From NCBI GenBank assembly GCA_023267475.1, contig JAHFND010000001.1, positions 1-38,577 on the forward strand: a stretch of 38,577 nt of DNA. The letters run 5' to 3'. The notes below the pieces were generated by a model. The model searched no databases. It saw only the letters and a list, made by a program, of their open reading frames with translations, and was not told the DNA's origin. This document shows, piece after piece, positions 542-24,599 of the stretch. This stretch comes from a bacterium (GTDB lineage: Bacteria > Patescibacteriota > Minisyncoccia > Phycocordibacterales > UBA5272). Numbering within the stretch: position 1 is the stretch's first letter; the number at the start of each line of letters is the position of its first letter. The position numbers were made by a program, and so were the translations under genes.

Positions 542-2542
542 ATGAAGACGAAAACATTGGCACTATCACAAAAGGATTTCGCCTGGGTAAAGATGACCAG
601 AGCGTATATGGAAAAGACTGCAAAGGCATATATTGAACACAAGAAAAAAGTGTATGCAGAGATAAAAAGTATTCCAAAAAATGAGCGTACATTTTTAAAC
701 ACTCTTTATGCTCTAGAGAGATGTGATGATAAGTTTGATAATTTTTTAGGTAAGATGCACTTACTTTCTGAAGTGTCTACAAATAAAGAAATAAGAGAAG
801 CTGGGAATAAAGTTGCCACAGAATCATCAGAGAAACTCATTGATGTGGAATACGATAAGGGAATGTTTTTGGCTGTAAAAGAATATTACGAAGACAATTT
901 AAAAAAAGAAAAGAAATCATTGCGAAAAGAGGATATTAAACTTCTAGAAGAGACATATCGTGAATATAAAAGAATGGGCTTTGATCTTCCAGATAAAACT
1001 CAGAAGAGATTAAAGACTCTGATGAAAAAATTATCGAAGCTTTCTATTTCTTTTCGTAAGAATATAAATGATTATCAGGATTATATTCTTTGCACGGAGG
1101 AAGATTTGGGCGGTTTGTCAGAAAGGTTTATATCATCTCTACCAAGACATACAGATGGTAGATATATAGTCTCACTACAGTATCCTCATATGTTACCTTT
1201 TATGTCAGAGTCTAGTAATAGAGAAAAAAGAAAGGAGTTAGCTTTAAAAAATCTAAAGAAAGGTGGCATAAAAAATCTAAAAATAATTGAAGAGATAGTA
1301 AAATTGCGTCACGAAGTATCTGAGATATTAGGGTACAAACATCATGCAGATTTTAGAACGGAGAATCGCATGGCAAAGAAAGGTGAGATAGTCGAAAAGT
1401 TTCAGGAAGAGTTATTGAAGAGCATAAGTCCTCTCGTTAAGAAAGATATGGCACTACTTCGTGAACATGCAAAAGCTATTGGTATAAAAAAATTGGAACA
1501 TTATGATGTAGCTTATATTTCTAATCTTCTCAAGAAAAAATTGTATGATGTAAATCAAGAAGAAGAGCGTCAATATTTTGAATATGAACATGTTCGTGAT
1601 GAAATGTTTAAAATGTTCGGCACTCTGTTTGGTATTTCTATAAATAAGACTAATATAAAACTTTGGCACAAAGATGTAAATCTATATCAGGTGAATGATA
1701 AAGATAGAACATTAATTGGATATTTTGCTATGGATATGTTTCCTCGTGAAGGTAAATTTGGACATGCAATGTTATCTGATTTTGTCACTTCTCATGAGAG
1801 TGGTTATAGAAAAGAAGAATATATAGCACCAGTATCTTGTATTGTTTGTAATTTTCCAAGTCCAACAAAGAAAGCACCGACACTTTTGTCTATAGCTGAA
1901 ATAGAGACATTATTTCATGAATTCGGTCACTGCATGCATGCGACATTATCAAGAGTTAGAATTGAATCTCAATCTGGTACTAATGTGGCCTGGGACTTCG
2001 TGGAGACTCCTTCACAGATAATGGAAAACTGGATATGGGATAAACAAGTTATATCAAGTTTTTCTAAGCATTATATTACAGGTAAGAAGATGCCAAGTAT
2101 TTTGATTGATAAGATTATACATGCTAAAAAGTTTTTAGGTGCTTATCATTACACTAGACAGTTAATGTTTAGTAAATTAGATATGGATTTACATACAGGC
2201 AAAGTAAGTGATGCTAAAGGTGCTTGGAGAAAGTTAAATAAGATTTACTTTGATTTAGATTTACCAGAAAAGGAGACTCTTTTTCCCGCAGGATTTGGTC
2301 ACTTAGTTGGTTATGATGCAGGGTACTATTCATATCTTTGGGCTCTTGTGTATGCATGTGATGCGTTCGAAGAATTTAAAACAAAAGGAAATAAAAATGT
2401 AATGAAGAATACTGAGATCGGCATGAAGTGGCGTCGTGAAGTATTAGAGAAGGGAAGTAGTGAAAATGAAATAGATTTAGTTAAGAATTTCTTAGGACGT
2501 AAGCCAAGTAATAAAGCATTCTTGAAAGAAATTGGGATATAG
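542..2542 (+). CDS. M3-family zinc metallopeptidase (oligoendopeptidase / thimet-Dcp-PrlC type)
   Basis: 666-aa ORF with the HEXXH zinc motif in LFHEFGHCMHA. The length and C-terminal catalytic domain layout are typical of peptidase family M3. Confidence 0.85.
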   Translation: MKTKTLALSQKDFAWVKMTRAYMEKTAKAYIEHKKKVYAEIKSIPKNERTFLNTLYALERCDDKFDNFLGKMHLLSEVSTNKEIREAGNKVATESSEKLIDVEYDKGMFLAVKEYYEDNLKKEKKSLRKEDIKLLEETYREYKRMGFDLPDKTQKRLKTLMKKLSKLSISFRKNINDYQDYILCTEEDLGGLSERFISSLPRHTDGRYIVSLQYPHMLPFMSESSNREKRKELALKNLKKGGIKNLKIIEEIVKLRHEVSEILGYKHHADFRTENRMAKKGEIVEKFQEELLKSISPLVKKDMALLREHAKAIGIKKLEHYDVAYISNLLKKKLYDVNQEEERQYFEYEHVRDEMFKMFGTLFGISINKTNIKLWHKDVNLYQVNDKDRTLIGYFAMDMFPREGKFGHAMLSDFVTSHESGYRKEEYIAPVSCIVCNFPSPTKKAPTLLSIAEIETLFHEFGHCMHATLSRVRIESQSGTNVAWDFVETPSQIMENWIWDKQVISSFSKHYITGKKMPSILIDKIIHAKKFLGAYHYTRQLMFSKLDMDLHTGKVSDAKGAWRKLNKIYFDLDLPEKETLFPAGFGHLVGYDAGYYSYLWALVYACDAFEEFKTKGNKNVMKNTEIGMKWRREVLEKGSSENEIDLVKNFLGRKPSNKAFLKEIGI

Positions 2543-2648
2543 CCCAATCTACTTTGTTGTGAAGTATTTTTGTTCCCGCAATGTACTACTTGTACATTTT
2601 AGTCACAAAAATACTTCACGCCTCGTATCTTAGGCTATCTACCAATTT
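2529..2648 (+). repeat. Nested-palindrome intergenic repeat, copy A
   Basis: Outer arms aaattgggatatagcc / ggctatctaccaattt (14/16 bp). 5' box caatctactttgttg. Inner stem gaagtatttttgt / acaaaaatacttc. Central hairpin aatgtac-tact-tgtacatt. 3' box cgcctcgtatct. The 5' arm contains the last codons and the TAG stop of the M3 peptidase gene. Confidence 0.8.
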
Positions 2649-2777: not shown

Positions 2778-4562
2778 ATGCAACAAGAAATTCGCAACAT
2801 CGCAATAATTGCTCACGTGGACCACGGCAAGACCACTCTTACTGATGCTCTTATGCAACAGTGTGGAACAGGGGAAAAGGGTCAGACTATGGACTCTAAC
2901 CCAATGGAAAAAGAGCGTGGTATTACTATTACAGCGAAGAACACTTCTGTATTGTATAAAGGAACAAAAATAAATATTCTAGATACCCCAGGTCACGCGG
3001 ATTTTGGTTCTGAAGTAGAGCGAGTATTACGTTCTATTGATTGTGTGCTTTTAGTTGTAGATGCACAAGAAGGTCCTATGCCTCAGACTCGTTTCGTATT
3101 GAAGAAGTCTCTTGAACTTGGTCTTAAGCCTATTGTAGTTATAAATAAGATAGACAAACCTGCAGCAGATTGCAGTCGTACACATGACGAAGTTTTTGAA
3201 CTTTTCTTAGAGCTTGGAGCAAATGATGAACAGCTTGATTTCACTACAGTGTATGCAATTGGTCGTGAAGGAGTAGCTATGATGAATGTAGATGATGAAA
3301 GAAAAGATCTTACACCACTACTAGATACAATACTTGCAAAAGTTCCAAAAGCAACAGGAGATAATAATAATCCGTTTGTAGCACAAGTGTTTAATCTTGC
3401 ATACGATAACTTTTTAGGACGTATGGCTATATGTCGTGTTTATGATGGAACTGCAAAAGTAGGAGAAGAAATTATTGTAAAAAAGCCAACAGGGGAGATG
3501 AGAAAAGGACGCATCACAAAGATGTATACATTTCGTGGTATAGAAAGAATTGAAGAAGAAATGGCAGAAGCAGGGGATATTATAATGGTTGCCGGATTTT
3601 CTGATATTTATATTGGAGAAACATTCGTTAAAAATGCAGATCAGAATCCAATGCCTGCAATTGCAATAGACGAACCTACAATCTCTCTTGATTTCTTAGT
3701 GAATGATTCTCCTTTTGCTGGCAAGGAAGGAAAATTTGTGACAGGTCGTCAGATTCGTGATCGTCTTGAAAAAGAAATAGAAATAAACGTTGGACTTCAC
3801 GTTGATTTTAATGCTGATAAATATTTAGTATATGGTCGTGGAGAACTCCACATTGCTGTACTTCTTGAAACAATGCGTCGTGAAGGGTATGAACTTCAAG
3901 TGTCACAACCACAAGTTATTTTTCATGAAAAAGATGGAGTAAAAGAAGAACCATACGAAGAACTTGTTATTGATGTACCTACAGAATTCTCAGGTGCAGT
4001 TATGGAAAAGCTTGGTCGTCGTAAAGCTCAAATTACTGACATGCAGGAAAAGCAAGGTATTACTCGTATAAAAGCAGATATTCCTACTCGTGGTCTTCTA
4101 GGATATAGAGGAGAGTTTGTTATAGACACAAAAGGTCTTGGTATTTTGTCATCACGATTTTCAAAGTTTGGTCCGTATGCAGGAGTTATACAGCGACGTC
4201 TTGTAGGTTCAATGACATCTATGGCTACAGGAAAAGCTTTAGCCTTTTCTCTTTGGAATCTTCAAGAGCGTGGAGTTATTTACATTCTTCCAAATACAGA
4301 AGTGTATGAAGGTATGATTATTGGAAACACATCAAAGGGTGAAGAGATGATGGTAAACCCAACAAAAGGAAAGCAACTTTCTAACATGAGATCTTCTGGT
4401 GCTGATGAGGCAATCACTCTTGTGCCAGCGTGGGAAATAACAATCGAGCGTGGTCTTGAAATAATGAATGCTGATGAATATCTAGAAGTTACACCAAAAT
4501 CAGTGAGACTACGTAAGCAACTTTTAACTGAAAGTGATCGCGCTAAAGCAGGCCGAAAATAA
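2778..4562 (+). CDS. typA: Translational GTPase TypA/BipA
   Basis: 594 aa. G motifs AHVDHGKTT, DTPGHADF, NKIDK. BipA-type domain order and C-terminal domain. Confidence 0.93.
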   Translation: MQQEIRNIAIIAHVDHGKTTLTDALMQQCGTGEKGQTMDSNPMEKERGITITAKNTSVLYKGTKINILDTPGHADFGSEVERVLRSIDCVLLVVDAQEGPMPQTRFVLKKSLELGLKPIVVINKIDKPAADCSRTHDEVFELFLELGANDEQLDFTTVYAIGREGVAMMNVDDERKDLTPLLDTILAKVPKATGDNNNPFVAQVFNLAYDNFLGRMAICRVYDGTAKVGEEIIVKKPTGEMRKGRITKMYTFRGIERIEEEMAEAGDIIMVAGFSDIYIGETFVKNADQNPMPAIAIDEPTISLDFLVNDSPFAGKEGKFVTGRQIRDRLEKEIEINVGLHVDFNADKYLVYGRGELHIAVLLETMRREGYELQVSQPQVIFHEKDGVKEEPYEELVIDVPTEFSGAVMEKLGRRKAQITDMQEKQGITRIKADIPTRGLLGYRGEFVIDTKGLGILSSRFSKFGPYAGVIQRRLVGSMTSMATGKALAFSLWNLQERGVIYILPNTEVYEGMIIGNTSKGEEMMVNPTKGKQLSNMRSSGADEAITLVPAWEITIERGLEIMNADEYLEVTPKSVRLRKQLLTESDRAKAGRK

Positions 4563-9712: not shown

Positions 9713-9718
9713 TTATTT

Positions 9719-9879
9719 GGCAGGCTCGGTCACAAAATCAGTTTTTCGCTTCACTCAAAACAAAAGATTTCGCGACCCCCATTCGAGTCTGCACGTACGA
9801 CACGCAGGTGTCGTACTCTCCCAGCACAAAATACAAAAAGTGATATCAAACGATATCACTTTTTGTATTTTGTGCTGGG
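9719..9879 (-). repeat. tRNA-Phe-linked composite structure (copy G of the repeat family plus tRNA-derived segments)
   Basis: Perfect 28-bp inverted repeat at 9820-9847 / 9852-9879; its distal arm is the tRNA-Phe 3' end. 9-bp hairpin at 9795-9816. The T-arm-like strands ggcag (9719-9723) and ctgca (9789-9793) are separated by 65 nt. That gap contains the hairpin ggtcacaaaatc (9728-9739) / gatttcgcgacc (9766-9777). Confidence 0.6.
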
Positions 9880-11688: not shown

Positions 11689-13830
11689 CTACCAACTAGT
11701 CACCATCAAGATATCGTCACTGTCACGCTTAATATATTTCCAAATTTCTTCTGTGATAAATGGCATGAATGGATGAATTGTAATTATTTGTTCGCGAAGA
11801 AGTTTAAGTAAAAGTGTCTGTGCGCTTTCTTTTTCCTTGTTTTCTAGAATACGTGCTTTCCTTGTTTCAATAATGTCATCACAAAACACTTTCCAGAAAT
11901 AGTCGTAGACTTTTTCAGAAGCCAAATGTAGACGATAATTTTCGATATCACTTGTAATATCTAGACGTTTTTCAATCCATGCATCGTACACTGCTTGATC
12001 TTCATTGTTTAGTTCCACATCTGTTTCATGGTCTGTTGTGCGTTCCAGCACGAAACGCGTAGCGTTCCATATTTTGTTAGCAAAATTTTTATATGCTTTG
12101 ATTTTGTCTTCGCCTAGTTTTAAGTCATTTCCCGGTCCGTTTCCTACTAGAAGTGACATGCGCAGTGCATCCGTTCCATATTTTTTAGTTAATTCTCTAG
12201 GATCTAGTATGTTATCTAGTGACTTACTCATTTTGCGACCTTTTGCATCACGGACAAGACCATGAAGGTATATTTGTTTGAATGGTGTTTCATTTAATGC
12301 ATAAGTAGAAAATAAAATCATGCGAGCAATCCAGAAAAATAAAATGTCATGTCCTGTTTCAATGAGTGATGTCGGATGGAAAGTCTCCATATCTTTTGTT
12401 TTATTTGGCCATCCTAATGTCGAGAATGTCCAAAGGCCAGATGAGAACCAAGTATCAAGAGTATCTTCATCTTGTGTCCATCCATCACCAGTTGGCGCTT
12501 CTGTATCACAATAGATTTCCCCACCTTTATACCAAACAGGAATACGATGCCCATACCAGATCTGGCGAGAAATACACCAGTCACGAAGATTATCTATCCA
12601 ATGGAAATATACTTTTTCAAATCTATCTGGAAGAATAGAAGTTTCTTTATTATCTACGACTTTACGCATTAGTTCTTTTAGAGTCGTTTCTTTTCCAAAA
12701 TGATTGAAAGTTTTATTTACACCTATAAACCACTGAAGTTTTGGTAATGGTTCTATCACCGCACCAGTGCGTTGTGCGATTGGGACATTCTGAACCACTT
12801 CTTCTTCTTTAATAATCAAATTATTTTCTTTTAACCAATTTACTATATATTCACGTGCATCAGTTACTTTCTTTCCATTTAGTTCTTCATTTGCGAGTCC
12901 GTACATCTTCGCGTACTCATTTATTACTTGTTTTGATGGGAGGTTATGACGTTCTTTTATTTCCCAGTCTATTTGACTGTGGGCTGGGGTTACACCGAGT
13001 GCGCCAGTACCAAAATCTTTTTCTACAGCATTATCAGCAATTATTTTTATTTTTATAGGACATCCTGCAAATTCTACTGTGTATTCTTTCCCTATATATT
13101 CTTTATATCTTTCGTCATCTGGATGTACCGCAACCGCCGTATCTCCAACTTTTGTTTCGGGGCGAGTAGAAGAAATTGCTATTGGAAAATCATGAGAGTA
13201 TTTAAACGTGTACATTACACCCTTTCTTTCTTCAGATTCTGTTTCATCATCTGAAATAGTCGTCTGACCTTTTGGGTCCCAGTTTACAATACGCTGCCCT
13301 CTATATATTAGTCCATCATCATACATCTTATTAAACATTGTGCGGACCGCGAGATTTCTTTCATCGTCCAATGTGAAAGCAAGGCGAGACCAGTCTAATG
13401 ATGCCCCCATAGATCGCATTTGTGTAAGAATGGTGGCTTGACTTTCAAGAGCAAAAGCATTTATTCTTTTTAGCATTTCTTCACGTCCAATGTCGTGACG
13501 AGTTTTACCTTCTTTTTTATATATATCTTTTTCTACTTTTGATTGTGTGGCTATAGCTGCGTGGTCAGTACCTGGAAGCCAAAGAGTTTTATAACCCTTC
13601 ATTCTTTTGAATCTTACTATAGTATCTTGTATAGCAAGCATGATGGCACTTCCCGTGTGTAGTGTTCCAGTTACGTTTGGCGGAGGCAGTACTATTGAAA
13701 ATGCGTTTGGACGTTCTCCTTTTAAATTGTCTGGATTAAAATAACCACTTTTCTCCCACATTTCATAAAGTTCTTTTTCTACAGAAGATGCGTCAAAGGG
13801 TTTTGTAAGTTGTTCTGGCAATTGCTTCAT
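11689..13830 (-). CDS. valS: Valine--tRNA ligase (short form)
   Basis: 713 aa. Class I motifs PPPNVTGTLHTGS and KMSKS (GRKMSKSLDN). CP1 editing-domain region present. It ends right after the anticodon-binding domain, without the long C-terminal coiled coil of ~880-950-aa ValRS enzymes. Confidence 0.9.
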   Translation of the reverse strand: MKQLPEQLTKPFDASSVEKELYEMWEKSGYFNPDNLKGERPNAFSIVLPPPNVTGTLHTGSAIMLAIQDTIVRFKRMKGYKTLWLPGTDHAAIATQSKVEKDIYKKEGKTRHDIGREEMLKRINAFALESQATILTQMRSMGASLDWSRLAFTLDDERNLAVRTMFNKMYDDGLIYRGQRIVNWDPKGQTTISDDETESEERKGVMYTFKYSHDFPIAISSTRPETKVGDTAVAVHPDDERYKEYIGKEYTVEFAGCPIKIKIIADNAVEKDFGTGALGVTPAHSQIDWEIKERHNLPSKQVINEYAKMYGLANEELNGKKVTDAREYIVNWLKENNLIIKEEEVVQNVPIAQRTGAVIEPLPKLQWFIGVNKTFNHFGKETTLKELMRKVVDNKETSILPDRFEKVYFHWIDNLRDWCISRQIWYGHRIPVWYKGGEIYCDTEAPTGDGWTQDEDTLDTWFSSGLWTFSTLGWPNKTKDMETFHPTSLIETGHDILFFWIARMILFSTYALNETPFKQIYLHGLVRDAKGRKMSKSLDNILDPRELTKKYGTDALRMSLLVGNGPGNDLKLGEDKIKAYKNFANKIWNATRFVLERTTDHETDVELNNEDQAVYDAWIEKRLDITSDIENYRLHLASEKVYDYFWKVFCDDIIETRKARILENKEKESAQTLLLKLLREQIITIHPFMPFITEEIWKYIKRDSDDILMVTSW

Positions 13831-14845: not shown

Positions 14846-14886
14846 AAAGAAAGCAACCGCTCCCACGGTTGCTTTCTTTTTGTTTT
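14846..14886 (+). terminator. Strong intrinsic terminator
   Basis: aaagaaagcaaccg-ctccca-cggttgctttcttt (14-bp stem) followed by ttgttttt. Confidence 0.8.
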
Positions 14887-15007
14887 TGCCAAAAATTGTC
14901 TCATCTACTTTGTCGCTAAGAAATTTTTATCATCAACGTACTAGTGTGTACGTTTATTTCAAAAAATTTCTATGCTTCGCGTATCTAAGACAATTTTTGG
15001 CAAAAAC
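14882..15007 (+). repeat. Nested-palindrome intergenic repeat, copy D
   Basis: Perfect 20-bp outer arms gtttttgccaaaaattgtct / agacaatttttggcaaaaac. 5' box catctactttgtcg. Inner stem agaaattttt / aaaaatttct. Centre aacgtac-tagtgt-gtacgtt. 3' box ttcgcgtatct. Confidence 0.85.
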
Positions 15008-18978: not shown

Positions 18979-19611
18979 TCATCTGACAACCTTAAGATTC
19001 GGCTTTTTCTCCTGCGCAAAAATCGCATACGTATTTCTGCCAGACCTCTTGGCGTCATACAGAGCGTTATCCGCAGCTGATTTCACTTCTTCGGGGTCAG
19101 CGCCATCGCGAGGGAAGCTTGCGATACCGATACTGATTCCGACACTTATTTCATGCCCGTCGATAACTATTGGGGCGCTCATAAGTCTCAGAATTTTGCC
19201 GGCAAGCTTTTCGTACGTCTTTATGTCTTTCACATCTGAGAGGATTATCGTGAATTCATCTCCTCCGATGCGTGCGACTGTATCTGTTGCACGATAAACG
19301 CATGAACGCAGTCTTGCCGACATCATTTTCAGCACTTTATCCGCGGCCGGATGTCCGTACGTGTCGTTTATTGATTTGAAATGATCGACATCTATAGCAA
19401 GGATACCCATGCTAGAGTTGTTCCTTCTAGCTATAGCGTACGCTTGTTCCAGCCTGTCATGGAACATCCACCGATTGGGCAAGCCAGTCAAATGGTCGCA
19501 GTAGGCGTGCTCTCGAGCCATCATGTTCTTCTTGTAAAGATGGATAATCACGAAGGTCTCAATGACCACCGCGATAACCAGAGTTATTAAAGCGATTATT
19601 TGAAAGTCCAT
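18979..19611 (-). CDS. Diguanylate cyclase (single TM helix + GGDEF domain)
   Basis: Start taken at MDFQIIALITLV.. (ATG 19611), with GGGAG 8 nt upstream. The track's longer ORF runs through tRNA-Glu. Active site RIGGDEF and the typical DHLTGLPNR linker. TGA stop. Confidence 0.88.
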   Translation of the reverse strand: MDFQIIALITLVIAVVIETFVIIHLYKKNMMAREHAYCDHLTGLPNRWMFHDRLEQAYAIARRNNSSMGILAIDVDHFKSINDTYGHPAADKVLKMMSARLRSCVYRATDTVARIGGDEFTIILSDVKDIKTYEKLAGKILRLMSAPIVIDGHEISVGISIGIASFPRDGADPEEVKSAADNALYDAKRSGRNTYAIFAQEKKPNLKVVR

Positions 19612-19657
19612 TTCTTCAATCTCCCATTGTGTAGAATTATTTGAAAAACCTTCAAAT

Positions 19658-19686
19658 ATAGTACAAGATAGTAGTACTTTTGTCAA
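19658..19686 (-). promoter_or_regulatory. Sigma70 promoter TTGACA-N17-TACTAT for the GGDEF gene
   Basis: Minus strand: ttgaca (19686-19681), 17-nt spacer, tactat (19663-19658). It lies just downstream of tRNA-Glu. Confidence 0.6.
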
Positions 19687-19698
19687 ATTGTGACCCTT

Positions 19699-21276: not shown

Positions 21277-22716
21277 ATGCTATTTAACTCCTTTGCCTTC
21301 CTAATATTTTTTACTGTTTTTTACACAGTTTTTTATTATTCTAGAGGAACAATAAGACAGCTGGTACTTTTTTTAGCTAGTTGTATTTTTTATGCATGGT
21401 TTATTCCAAAGTACTTACTTATTCTTTTTTTAGCTATCGCGATTGATTATTATGCAGCGATAAAGATAGAAGAGGCAGATTCTGATAAAAAAAAGAAGAT
21501 AGCGCTTATCTTAGGTGTCGTAAATACTTCTTTAATATTATTTGTCTTTAAGTATCATAATTTTTTTATAGATAATATCAATTTTATAAGCGGTCTTAAA
21601 TTATCACATTGGAGTTTGATATTACCTATCGGTCTTTCATTTCACACATTTCAAAGTCTAAGTTATGTGATAGATGTTTATTGGGGGAAAGTTAAAGCAG
21701 AAAGAAATATTCTTATATATGCAAATTATGTGATGATGTTTCCTCAATTAGTCGCAGGACCGATAGAAAGAGCAGGACATCTGATTCCCCAGATAAGAAA
21801 TTCTTTTTATAGTAAGTTAAGCGATTCGGATTTTGTAATTGGGTCTTCACTTTTCTTTTATGGACTATTCAAGAAAGTGGTAGTCGCTGATAATATTGGC
21901 CCTTATGTGAGTGCTGTGTTTGATAATTATACTCATCATAATGGAGCTACGATGTTTGTTGGAACAATGTTTTTCGCGATACAAATATATGCTGATTTTT
22001 CAGGGTATTCAGATATGGCAATTGGCGTCGCTAGAACTCTTGGTTTTAAGTTCAATGATAATTTCCAAACTCCCTACTTCTCCCGTTCCGTCACAGAATT
22101 CTGGAGAAGATGGCATATATCTCTATCATCATGGCTTAGAGACTATCTATACTATCCTCTAGTACTAAGTACAGGAAAGATAACTAAAACAAAGATGAAT
22201 CTAAGCATACTAGCCACATTTGCCATAATAGGCCTCTGGCATGGTGCAGCTTGGACTTTTGTTATCTTTGGTACTCTACACGGTATATATCTAGTGGTAG
22301 AGTCTTTAACTGACAAATACAGAAAGAATCTAGTATCTTTCATTCATCTAGATAAACTACCCTTTCTTCACCATATACTAGACTCTCTACTTACATTTAT
22401 CCTTGTCTCTCTTTCTTTTGTTTTCTTTAGGGCGAAGAGTTTAGATCAATCTTTTTACATGTTAAAGAAAATATTTTCTGATTATAAGATAAGTGATGTA
22501 AGCCTACTTGATACGAATAGTTTTGCGATAATACTTTTCTCTATAGCTATATTGTTCTCGACAGAGTATTTAGTATTTAGAAAGTATTCTATAGATGATA
22601 TTTATAATAAGGCAAAGGGGAATATTTTCTTGTATTCGATCGCTGTGATTTCTATCTTGTTTGTATTTTCATTTGGTTCTTGGGGAGAGACAAGCTTTAT
22701 TTATTTCCAATTCTAG
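21277..22716 (+). CDS. MBOAT-family membrane O-acyltransferase (AlgI/DltB/PatA type)
   Basis: 479-aa polytopic protein. Signature EFWRRWHISLSSWLRDYLYYP with the catalytic His. Confidence 0.88.
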   Translation: MLFNSFAFLIFFTVFYTVFYYSRGTIRQLVLFLASCIFYAWFIPKYLLILFLAIAIDYYAAIKIEEADSDKKKKIALILGVVNTSLILFVFKYHNFFIDNINFISGLKLSHWSLILPIGLSFHTFQSLSYVIDVYWGKVKAERNILIYANYVMMFPQLVAGPIERAGHLIPQIRNSFYSKLSDSDFVIGSSLFFYGLFKKVVVADNIGPYVSAVFDNYTHHNGATMFVGTMFFAIQIYADFSGYSDMAIGVARTLGFKFNDNFQTPYFSRSVTEFWRRWHISLSSWLRDYLYYPLVLSTGKITKTKMNLSILATFAIIGLWHGAAWTFVIFGTLHGIYLVVESLTDKYRKNLVSFIHLDKLPFLHHILDSLLTFILVSLSFVFFRAKSLDQSFYMLKKIFSDYKISDVSLLDTNSFAIILFSIAILFSTEYLVFRKYSIDDIYNKAKGNIFLYSIAVISILFVFSFGSWGETSFIYFQF

Positions 22717-22717
22717 T

Positions 22718-23650
22718 ATGATACAAATTCTCAAAAGGATAATAATTATCATTATCGTCGTCATAATAATCGATAGGGCATTTTCGTATTTGTTCATGAA
22801 TTTTATTTTTAAGAAAACCATATCAGGGGAGAGTGGTGGAACGATAAATAATGTGATTAATAGACATAATAATTTAGATTTTCTAATTCTTGGTGCATCG
22901 CGTGCGAAGCATGGAATAGACCCGAAGTATCTTACAGCACTCGGAAATGATGGTTTTAATTTAGGAATAAATGGTACGAGTATTTTAAATAGTCTACTTG
23001 TACTGGATATTCTTATACAGAATAATGCGAAGCCTAAGACTGTAGTAGTGCAGGCAGATTTATTTGAATTCGTTAAAGGATTCGATCCTTATGTTTCTGA
23101 GCAGGCGAAAAAGGTTTATCCATACGACACAGAACTTATAAGAGAATATGTGCGTAATGCAGGTAAAGTAGAACAAGTTAAATATTTTTTTGAGACATAT
23201 CGTCTTAACAGAAAGATATTGAATGTGGCAGTTAATTTCTTTAAAAGAAATACTATAAATATTGGAAATGGGTATGTCGGATTAACTAATACTACTGCAG
23301 TACCTGATGATATATCAGTGTCAGGGGATTATGTATATGACAGTGGTGGGGTGCACGCGGAGTCTGTAAAAAAGATTAAAAAATTAGCCGATGAAAACAA
23401 TATAAAGTTGATAATTGTATTTCCTCCTTTTTATAAAAACGTTTCTTATAATAAATTAGAGCAAAAGCGAATAGATGATGATTTCACAAATAGCGGTATT
23501 ACAGTTATAGATATGTCTGATGTGGAAAAGTATAAAGAATTAGAGGGAATAGAAAATTGGAGGGATTCATTTCATTTTAATTCTGTTGGAGCAGAAAAGT
23601 TCTCTATTCTTTTGAATGAGGAGATAAAGAAGAGGAATACTGGGAGGTAG
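22718..23650 (+). CDS. Membrane-anchored extracytoplasmic partner of the MBOAT protein (AlgJ/DltD/SGNH-like, tentative)
   Basis: ATG 22718 is 1 nt after the MBOAT stop; the track start 22661 overlaps the MBOAT gene. N-terminal TM helix, then LILGASRAKHGIDP. Gene order matches known MBOAT two-gene modules. Confidence 0.6.
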   Translation: MIQILKRIIIIIIVVIIIDRAFSYLFMNFIFKKTISGESGGTINNVINRHNNLDFLILGASRAKHGIDPKYLTALGNDGFNLGINGTSILNSLLVLDILIQNNAKPKTVVVQADLFEFVKGFDPYVSEQAKKVYPYDTELIREYVRNAGKVEQVKYFFETYRLNRKILNVAVNFFKRNTINIGNGYVGLTNTTAVPDDISVSGDYVYDSGGVHAESVKKIKKLADENNIKLIIVFPPFYKNVSYNKLEQKRIDDDFTNSGITVIDMSDVEKYKELEGIENWRDSFHFNSVGAEKFSILLNEEIKKRNTGR

Positions 23651-23651
23651 C

Positions 23652-23791
23652 TGATGGAGAGAGTGGGATGTTCGGTCACAAAACTACCTCACTTCGTTCG
23701 AAGTAGTTTCGCGACCCCGTATTCGAATCCCACCGAAAAGTGATGCAGATCACTTTTCTTCTCTACGCAGTTTTTCACTACGTTCAAAACT
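23652..23791 (-). repeat. tRNA-Ser-linked composite structure (copy H of the repeat family plus duplicated tRNA 3' segment)
   Basis: ggagagagtgggat (23656-23669) duplicates 14 nt of the adjacent tRNA 3' end. The T-stem strands gtgggat (23663-23669) and atcccac (23727-23733) are separated by 57 nt. That gap contains the hairpin ggtcacaaaactac (23674-23687) / gtagtttcgcgacc (23703-23716). Further hairpins at 23735-23758 and 23765-23783. Confidence 0.6.
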
Positions 23792-23881
23792 TGGCGGAGA
23801 GAGTGGGATTCGAACCCACGGACCTAATAAAAGGTCGACGGTTTAGTAAACCGTTGATTTAAACCACTCATCCATCTCTCC
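23792..23881 (-). tRNA. Type II (long variable arm) tRNA, Ser-like, anticodon ACU; CCA encoded
   Basis: Minus strand: ggagaga tg gat gagtggtttaa atc a acggt ttACTaa accgt cgaccttttattaggtcc gtggg ttcgaat cccac tctctcc g cca. The layout is collinear with E. coli tRNA-Ser. Confidence 0.8.
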
Positions 23882-23905
23882 ATGGTTTGTCTTTGGAAAC
23901 GTCTT

Positions 23906-23995
23906 TGGCGGAGACGATGGGATTTGAACCCATGAGGGGCGTGAACCCCTGCCTCGTTAGCAGTGAGGTGCCTTCGACCACTCAGCCACGTCTCC
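23906..23995 (-). tRNA. tRNA-Ser (anticodon GCU), CCA encoded
   Basis: Minus strand: ggagacg tg gct gagtggtcgaa ggc a cctca ctGCTaa cgagg caggggttcacgcccctc atggg ttcaaat cccat cgtctcc g cca. Extended -10 TGtTAGAAT lies about 11 nt upstream. Confidence 0.92.
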
Positions 23996-24038
23996 GAATG
24001 CGTTCTATTCTAACATAATTTATTTATATTGGTATTTC

Positions 24039-24599
24039 TTATTTTCTCTTAAAAAATTCTTCAATATCTATCTCATACCATTCTTTTGGAATTTTTTCTT
24101 TAAACCAAATACTGCGTTCATAATCATCAAGTTCTGTTGCGATAACCCATGTAAGTACAACAACAAATACTATAGAAAATATTGCCACTGCACCTATAAG
24201 AAGATTTTCATAATTGAACACCATAGAAAGTGCAATTAAAATAAACGAAGGAGCACCTACTAAAATGTGCATCATTATAGGTAGCTGCTCGTCTCTGTAC
24301 AAAAGAAATGTTTCAAGATCTTTTTGTAGTACACATTTAGAAATTATCTTATATTCTTTAAAGACGGATTCTACAGCTATTGAGGCAAATATCACATATA
24401 TAAAAGCCACTAAAGGCATTATCATAAACAAAATTGGATTCTCTGATTGCTTACTAAAAATTATTCCGTGATCATATAGGCCATATTTCCAAATGAGGAC
24501 CATTATAAATCCAGAGACAAGAGGTTTGAACACTATAGGTAAATGTCGGTTCACTGTATTCCAATTTCTGTTCCAGGGTATAAAGTTTCTTTTTTTCAT
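24039..24599 (-). CDS. Hypothetical polytopic membrane protein
   Basis: 186-aa ORF with about four hydrophobic spans. No family recognised. Confidence 0.55.
   Translation of the reverse strand: MKKRNFIPWNRNWNTVNRHLPIVFKPLVSGFIMVLIWKYGLYDHGIIFSKQSENPILFMIMPLVAFIYVIFASIAVESVFKEYKIISKCVLQKDLETFLLYRDEQLPIMMHILVGAPSFILIALSMVFNYENLLIGAVAIFSIVFVVVLTWVIATELDDYERSIWFKEKIPKEWYEIDIEEFFKRK

Follow-up and report, generated by a model that had tools for sequence, protein, structure and literature searches.

A family of gene-less, hairpin-rich units matched to the 3′ ends of neighbouring tRNA genes in Patescibacteria, possibly integrated mobile elements

Behind a tRNA-Ser gene of a candidate-phyla-radiation (CPR, Patescibacteria) bacterium lies a unit of a hairpin-rich family that recurs 3′ of tRNA genes, with arms that match the tail of the particular tRNA beside them. 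The stretch, positions 23652–23791 on the minus strand, belongs to a 38,577-nucleotide (nt) window (positions 1–38,577 of the forward strand of contig JAHFND010000001.1, assembly GCA_023267475.1; all coordinates count from window position 1). We read the unit as an integrated mobile element that is miniature, gene-less and non-autonomous, a reading to which we give a probability of about 0.6, with its details much less certain. The targets in which the family specialises are the 3′ parts of genes for tRNA and transfer-messenger RNA (tmRNA), together with that of at least one protein gene, topA. The genome, about 80% complete and about 36% G+C, comprises 461 kb in 44 contigs. Below, L numbers denote loci compared, C numbers contigs of this genome and G024 a relative genome.

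Read along the tRNA strand, a unit usually begins with a long terminator-like palindrome, followed by a strand complementary to tRNA positions 66–72(75) and by a hairpin, H, whose loop is CTGC or, in rare cases, CTTC or CTGT. Then come CG(T), an arm complementary to tRNA 56–64, AAT plus two nucleotides, a conserved hairpin cassette (GGGGTCGCGAAA...TTTTGTGACC), and a sense copy of tRNA 56–73/74. The module measures about 130 nt and whole inserts 130–250 nt, with no gene inside. The genome, which has 36 tRNA genes, holds 11 units. Ten of them lie 60–190 nt 3′ of a same-strand tRNA gene (Gly-gcc, Gln-ttg, Ala-tgc, Thr-tgt, Leu-caa, Ile-tat, Arg-gcg, Gln-ctg, Ser-act and Phe-gaa), and the eleventh stands at the start of contig C26 (1–140), where its host tRNA is cut off.

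A covariance model (R1) built from 25 units, aligned as A1, finds exactly two copies in the window: the tRNA-Ser unit (23662–23760, 87.3 bits, E 9e-19) and a second unit behind tRNA-Phe (9716–9871, minus strand; model match 9716–9819, 76.6 bits). The latter opens with a palindrome of 29 bp, in which the acceptor 3′ strand of the tRNA and GCTGGGA are included; hairpin H (gtacgacac-ctgc-gtgtcgtac) comes next, then a left arm and a type-A cassette, with cgagcctgcc as the right arm. By chance, 0.01 occurrences of the core motif would be expected in the window, and a reversed control pattern matched in 0 of 61 genomes, against 24 genomes matched by the real one. An earlier note on this DNA, made from the sequence of the window, had proposed a mechanism rather than chance from the two loci it saw, and these figures exclude chance.

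The tRNA-Ser gene with anticodon ACU (23792–23881, minus strand; called by ARAGORN, Rfam tRNA match of 58.2 bits) encodes its CCA and follows a tRNA-Ser gene with anticodon GCU (23906–23995, minus strand). The 140 nt 3′ of it stop 1 nt short of the stop codon of a convergent open reading frame (ORF, 22661–23650). All parts of the unit are on the minus strand, where the earlier note had correctly placed three hairpins and a repeat of the tRNA tail. Hairpin 1 (23765–23783, acgtag-tgaaaaa-ctgcgt, with one T·G pair), seen in the sequence and in the minimum-free-energy (MFE) fold, is weak and not family-conserved; the long terminator-like palindrome occupies its place in most units, and it drops out of the recurring arrangement to which the note had assigned it. 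The 5′ acceptor-like strand GTAGAGA (23760–23766) complements tRNA 66–72 (TCTCTCC) at 6 of 7 bases and, with 23656–23662, closes a three-way junction in the MFE fold; in the corresponding unit of G024 (locus L003) the GGAGAGA/TCTCTCC pairing is perfect. Hairpin H (23735–23758, gaaaagtgat-ctgc-atcacttttc) has a 10-bp stem and a CTGC tetraloop. Its stem shows compensatory changes, at 7 of 9 pairs across the 25 units, and the 11 such CTGC hairpins of the genome all lie inside units.

The left arm gtgggattcg (23724–23733) is the exact reverse complement of tRNA-Ser 56–65 (cgaatcccac). Between it and the cassette stands the unpaired AAT plus two nucleotides (aatac, 23719–23723) that is conserved in A1. 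The type-A cassette (23674–23718, 45 nt) is a 14-bp hairpin, ggggtcgcgaaactac/gtagttttgtgacc, with two conserved G·U pairs; its apical loop, ttcgaacgaagtgag, contains a CGARC-N3-GYGAG mini-hairpin. The right arm gaacatcccac (23663–23673) is a sense copy of tRNA 57–65 with a 2-nt insertion (ac), and a sense copy of the acceptor 3′ strand, tctctcc, follows with 7 of 7 bases matched (23656–23662). The next base, 23655, is A where tRNA-Ser carries G73, and the acceptor copy (23655–23662) ends 5 nt ahead of the stop codon of the convergent ORF. The long hairpin thus spans 23663–23733, followed by tctctcc, and 61 nt separate gtggg from cccac, not 57 as first counted. No ORF lies within the unit, no Rfam family other than tRNA covers it, and 23500–24150 holds no terminator or promoter match. 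Because no terminator lies between them, the unit is probably co-transcribed with both tRNA-Ser genes of the locus.

The tRNA-Ser(ACU) gene itself, with A34, adjoins a normal tRNA-Ser(GCU). Its counterpart in G024 (L003 1630–1700, minus strand) is decayed, reading GTGGG-CACTTAA-CCCA-TATTCACC-GCCA, and ARAGORN makes no call there.

The arms are fitted to the host tRNA. Over 19 units, the left arm matches 8.6 of 9 bases in its own tRNA and 5.6 in other tRNAs, at least 6 of 7 bases of the 5′ acceptor-like strand fit the own tRNA in 10 of 19 units, the figure for other tRNAs being 3.4%, and the alignment score of the downstream copy is 10 for the own tRNA and 3 for others. Host tRNAs with the T loops TTCAAGT, TTCAATC and TTCAAAT have units with the left arms ACTTG, GATTG and ATTTG, and a host tRNA with G50·T64 has A in the left arm. 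Since the left arm is complementary to the 3′ strand, what had been described as a duplicated T arm split by an insertion is a hairpin on one sense copy of the tRNA tail; in the tRNA-Ser unit the left arm resembles a T loop (TTCGAAT) because TCGA is palindromic. Among the positions that distinguish the two tail copies, the left arm fits the tRNA-embedded copy at 28 and the downstream copy at 3. The tRNA-Ser unit behaves likewise, its left arm being a perfect complement of tRNA 56–65 whereas the downstream copy bears the 2-nt insertion. At L006 the downstream copy carries the allele (A59) of a unit-free tRNA-Gln paralogue on contig C19. The outer strands are less constant: seven units have only the 5′ acceptor-like strand, five only the acceptor copy, about five both and three neither, and about half of units are without either the one or the other. 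These counts fit independence, and we dropped the idea that the 5′ acceptor-like strand is traded off against the acceptor copy downstream.

The fold is conserved and specific to one strand. From the alignment of 25 units, RNAalifold predicts H along with the arm and cassette helices; of 29 pairs, 17 have changed on both sides, and 95.8% of cells are paired, compared with 82% in column shuffles and 36–46% when partners are slid. The cassette occurs as type A, a hairpin of 45–55 nt, and type B, about 100 nt long, whose 3′ half is the type-A helix; this helix covaries between units (GGTCGC/GTGACC, GGCTGC/GTAGCC, GACTGC/GTAGTC and CCGGC/GTCGG). The earlier note had pointed to two G·U pairs in the inner 14-bp stem that would be A/C on the other strand, and both are conserved family-wide, columns 53/107 in 25 of 25 units and columns 55/105 in 22 of 25. 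G·T outnumbers A·C by 86 to 14 in the cassette and by 8 to 1 in H. The tRNA-sense strand of the tRNA-Ser unit folds into a three-way junction of −57.9 kcal/mol (z −6.45, with 0 of 200 shuffles as good), compared with −41.6 kcal/mol (z −3.05) for the opposite strand. Covariation and strand bias together show that a single-stranded form of the tRNA-sense strand matters; RNA and DNA are both compatible with this.

The family is widespread within its lineage. Within the genus, 22 of 36 genomes contain the strict type-A pattern, as does 1 of 24 from other families of the order, and viral contigs gave 0 matches to the strict cassette pattern. A metagenome scan for the type-A cassette returned at least 122 matches, and the cassette stands on at least 100 metagenome contigs. 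Among the matches listed, 74 of 122 have a same-strand tRNA at most 400 nt upstream, representing 33 anticodon classes, 20 of 122 lie within 250 nt of a contig start, and about 7 of 122 are chance matches in GC-rich DNA. An earlier contig scan used a 15-base pattern that was too short, and most of its 120 loci are chance matches; about seven are real units (L024, L029, L044, L068, L085, L113 and one more). As L068 belongs to a Candidatus Paceibacterota metagenome-assembled genome (MAG), the family belongs to the CPR (Patescibacteria) lineage. A literature search found no paper describing it. The earlier note had predicted further examples at other tRNA 3′ flanks, and they turned up many times over; the two outcomes that it had set against its own proposal, a lack of other tRNA loci and an absence from relatives together with chance-level similarity to the T arm, were not what we found.

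Targets extend beyond tRNA T loops. Units stand directly behind the tmRNA gene ssrA (L150 9056–9620; L240 858–1470; L243 about 12075–12675) together with copies of the tmRNA 3′ end (GGGGGTTCAATTCCCCCCATCTCCAC), and at tRNA-Ala and others the target is the extreme 3′ end (CAC|A). At tRNA-Asn a mirrored arrangement stands upstream of the gene (L207, L219, L238 at about 400–560 and L245 at about 3040–3200): a sense copy of the 5′ end (TTCCGTGGTAG) comes first, next a hairpin and a type-B cassette, and then 22 nt antisense to positions 4–25, with ACATTCCGTGGTA repeated on either side. This arrangement does not fit the 3′-end model.

Several observations point to insertion and turnover. The insert is flanked by a direct repeat of the 3′ portion of its target, whose gene remains whole. 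Seven tRNAs that are unit-free here (Tyr, Lys-ctt, Arg-tct, Arg-cct, Leu-taa, Thr-ggt and Val-tac) are followed by one in congeners, and at the orthologous Arg-gcg and Phe loci of two species the units have different H stems and different cassette loops. Units occur in tandem (L001, L009 and L024), and at L002 one full unit is followed by three remnants that have lost the 5′ part and kept the cassette 3′ end and GAGTCCTCTC. The topA gene is the most informative target. At three metagenome loci (L158, L250 and L257) a type-B unit follows the topA stop codon, its left arm is complementary to CAC(C/A)AAAAC within the gene, and beyond the cassette the last ~20 codons stand again in a second copy, which encodes the same peptide (KTIPERCSNKLCPNHNPHKL) and is followed by its own stop codon and a terminator. 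In L250 and L257 the copies differ by 9–10 synonymous and 0–1 non-synonymous changes in the conserved 20-codon core; L158 is more diverged, with 8 synonymous and 8 non-synonymous changes over all codons compared. With such differences at synonymous sites, each of the copies has evolved while coding for protein, which rules out a fresh, simple target-site duplication. These substitutions mark the downstream topA copy as the displaced native end, the active copy having arrived with the element from another lineage; differing 3′-end copies are a known pattern for prophages in icd. For tRNAs the sequences lend partial, weaker support to the same displacement.

The earlier note had offered two options, an integration at (or targeting of) T loops and a functional trailer resembling a tRNA. 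Integration is favoured by the many tRNAs used, the match to the own tRNA, the tandems, the remnants and the uneven presence at the same tRNA in related species, and the trailer stays as the rival. We propose that integration would proceed by site-specific recombination near T-loop positions 55/56–58, across a putative short shared core (cassette end GTGAC|CGA, target GGTT|CGA; in topA, GGCAC|CAAA). The element brings its own copy of the target 3′ end to topA and would do the same for tRNAs; the gene would stay intact because the element supplies the replacement. The original 3′ end would be displaced downstream and persist after the cassette as the apparent duplicate, here 23655–23673. On this model, positions 56–76 of tRNA-Ser(ACU) would be the copy borne by the element, and the right arm (23663–23673) a piece of the original T-loop/T-stem strand, now displaced. 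In its left arm and 5′ acceptor-like strand the element has antisense copies of the tail as well. Its tRNA-sense strand is predicted to fold to the three-way junction, which would rebuild the target in duplex form, with H and the cassette hairpin as caps. With low confidence, we suggest that this folded single strand, DNA or RNA, could be recognised by a recombinase acting in trans; a DNA version could be likened to an integron attC or a CTX-phage attP site, and a candidate enzyme would be the host's single Xer-like tyrosine recombinase (319 aa, contig C20, found by a motif search of the 625 ORFs of the ~80% complete genome).

A number of points weigh against integration. The same motif search found no reverse transcriptase, Y1 or serine recombinase among the 625 ORFs, and no recombinase, transposase or reverse transcriptase could be tied to the element; the IS200/IS605, Y1 or integrase partner that the earlier note had suggested was not seen in the ~80% complete genome, in which the motif search found one Xer-like gene. 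The 363 proteins encoded within 4 kb of 101 metagenome units cluster only into housekeeping families, and no longer, gene-bearing form occurs among at least 140 loci. Neither an excised or circular form nor a sequence-identical pair of filled and empty sites was seen. Classical attachment sites need no antisense copy of their target, and strong covariation with conserved G·U pairs is atypical of such sites and fits a functional RNA equally well or better. One enzyme serving more than 30 targets would require three segments of the element to be re-matched to each new target. The G024 unit is intact although its tRNA-Ser(ACU) has decayed, which could mean selection on the unit itself, and the Escherichia coli look-alike RtT, compared below, is a processed RNA.

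Several of these points are shared by the main rival, which we consider unlikely but well ahead of the others, that the unit is a functional structured RNA in the tRNA 3′ trailer, an RtT-like non-coding RNA that has to match the neighbouring tRNA in order to function. Its acceptor/T-arm mimicry might lead RNase P and RNase Z to cut the unit out of the precursor, or the antisense arms might pair with the 3′ part of the precursor tRNA and control its folding or processing. The covariation and strand-specific G·U pairs, the much better fold of the tRNA-sense strand, the lack of a terminator between tRNA-Ser and its unit, the intact G024 unit beside a decayed tRNA, and the antisense–core–sense layout of the E. 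coli repeat, annotated as the small RNA rttR, all speak for it. Yet a long terminator-like palindrome separates most units from their tRNA, presence and variant type vary at orthologous tRNAs, truncated remnants and tandem copies accumulate, and about half of units are without the 5′ acceptor-like strand or the acceptor copy; a cassette behind topA with a displaced coding 3′ end is left unexplained by tRNA processing. The two readings are not exclusive, since an RNA of the element could aid its own spread or be co-opted.

An RNA-mediated route and the scars of islands fit less well than either an integrated element or an RtT-like RNA. In a retro-element, a tRNA-like 3′ end of an RNA intermediate would prime a reverse transcriptase and incomplete copying would truncate the 5′ end, in keeping with the three 5′-truncated L002 remnants with intact 3′ ends, the restriction of structure to the transcribed strand and a 3′ end resembling the top half of a tRNA. 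We think this improbable, however, since motif searches found no reverse-transcriptase-like ORF in the genome or near 101 units, the downstream copies have no CCA end and the antisense strand matches genomic flank rather than mature CCA, and topA needs a carried replacement 3′ end, as in DNA integration. Even less probable is that the units are scars of large prophages or islands, later deleted except for the ends of their attachment regions. Tail repeats do flank the insert like attL and attR, and the T loop and 3′ end are the sublocations in tRNA genes that integrases use, as Williams reportedly described in 2002. Eleven scars in a 0.46-Mb genome, however, would not be expected to have a uniform 130–250-nt layout or a single conserved cassette common to units at more than 30 targets; covariation shows that the structure is maintained, and no gene-containing longer form exists among the at least 140 loci.

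Within the integration reading, the antisense arms might act as guides, with H and the cassette forming a scaffold that presents two target-complementary segments and so directs a trans-acting host enzyme to insert the element at any tRNA-like or gene 3′ end. This is a speculative idea that we hold to be quite unlikely. If true, it would amount to programmable, nucleic-acid-guided integration by a 130-nt gene-less element, kin to the E. coli tyrT repeats, which to our knowledge are unexplained after 45 years; guide arms would also be of interest for targeted DNA insertion.

Three other ideas were rejected. A hammerhead ribozyme (from CAGATGAG and GAAA) fails since these bases belong to the target-derived arm, a retron-like non-coding RNA (a1/a2 stem, G before the hairpin) since there is no reverse transcriptase and there are many copies, and a primer-binding site since the antisense strand matches the genomic flank past position 73, not CCA.

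Other repeats and variable regions were seen alongside the family. Long perfect palindromes of 20–29 bp follow gene ends in the window (2529–2648 and 14882–15007) and occur at tRNA terminators on contigs C42, C27 and C16. In a stop-codon repeat family, and in several tRNA units, the palindrome reaches into the last bases of the upstream gene, which would fit outward growth by template switching. This stop-codon palindrome family and the type-B cassette both contain CGAGG and ATTTTTGTGAC and may be akin. The region 3′ of tRNA-Glu is variable (window 18979–19698 compared with L068 3200–5440): a GGDEF gene stands there in the window, and a unit with genes for a membrane protein, msrA and msrB in the syntenic Paceibacterota MAG.

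What is new is a CPR family that stands between tRNA-integrating elements and the E. coli RtT repeats. If integrative, its units would be the smallest site-specific integrating elements known, rewriting the 3′ ends of essential genes (tRNA, tmRNA and topA) in bacteria thought poor in mobile elements. Placed behind nearly one third of the genome's tRNA genes, the units give the 3′ trailers their shape and perhaps affect transcription termination. Breaks in short-read metagenome assemblies may be partly due to them, and island finders that rely on tRNA-tail repeats can be misled by them.

Compared with the islands and prophages of tRNA and tmRNA genes, and with e14 and phage 21 in icd, the units are alike in inserting at the T loop or 3′ end, replacing the 3′ end and displacing the native one; the copies in the protein gene differ at synonymous sites, as in icd. 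They differ from integrase islands in having an insert of 130–250 nt with no gene and no integrase, in carrying antisense copies of the target, and in using one scaffold for dozens of targets. With attC and CTX attP sites they have in common an imperfect palindrome of about 60–140 nt whose ends are conserved and whose middle varies, features specific to one strand, an arrangement in tandem arrays and, for the CPR unit putatively, a recombinase encoded elsewhere. Their targets, however, are gene 3′ ends and not attI or dif, they carry no cargo ORF, their single-stranded DNA form is hypothetical, and no GTTRRRY-type core is visible at unit ends in alignment A1.

Like MITEs (miniature inverted-repeat transposable elements) and repetitive extragenic palindromic (REP) repeats, including the stop-codon palindromes of this genome, the units are short, gene-less, multi-copy, hairpin-forming and intergenic, and with the stop-codon family they share an inverted copy of the upstream gene end in the stem. 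In contrast to MITEs, they have no conserved terminal inverted repeats and no short (2–10 bp) target duplication; their ends are target-derived and vary between units, and their orientation is fixed relative to the target gene. Their flanking repeat is 19 to about 75 nt and may be a diverged orthologous copy; palindromic elements derived from IS200/IS605 make no long flanking repeat. A motif search for Y1 (HUH) enzymes in the ~80% complete genome returned only HIT-family proteins with H-x-H.

The closest parallel is RtT (RF00391), which we take to be the "tRNA-linked repeats" of Rudd. E. coli K-12 has four RtT units behind tyrT and tyrV (RF00391, 133–138 bits), each consisting of GGGGAAGGAT (antisense to tRNA-Tyr 59–68), GAGAAG, a core with CGAGCG-N3/4-GCGAG, and AATCCTTCCCCCACCACCA (sense 58–76). 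Both families stand directly 3′ of a same-strand tRNA gene, often in tandem, and close with some 19 nt of the tRNA 3′ end in sense orientation, paired with an upstream antisense arm. The outer helix of RF00391 is this antisense/sense pairing, GGGGAAGGAT with ATCCTTCCCC, and its counterpart in the window is the pairing of 23724–23733 with 23663–23673. The RtT core motif CGAGCG-N3/4-GCGAG (CGAGCGAAGCGAG) also occurs in the loop of the CPR type-A cassette, and the GAGAAG after the RtT arm resembles the GAGAAAG with which the type-B cassette starts after the left arm. The E. coli units differ in having neither hairpin H nor the GGGGTCGCGAAA/TTTTGTGACC helix, and RtT is confined to one species group and one tRNA type, whereas the CPR family uses more than 30 tRNA types, tmRNA and topA. 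RF00391 gives no match in the window at its gathering score (45 bits) and none up to E 10 on the unit, on L004 or on 20 metagenome loci, and R1 gives none on the E. coli RtT locus. The layout is thus the same, but the covariance models do not support membership of one family. The rtT RNA is cited as involved in processing of the tyrT transcript, with its mode of action still unknown (10.1101/2024.07.17.603846). In E. coli K-12 (L261, 1286700–1287540) the tyrT–tyrV spacer holds one RtT unit and three more lie 3′ of tyrV; the tandem tRNA-Tyr genes may have arisen by duplication through recombination between RtT units. The common layout makes E. coli RtT a laboratory model for a family otherwise found only in uncultured bacteria, and the CPR family may in turn explain what the tyrT repeats are.

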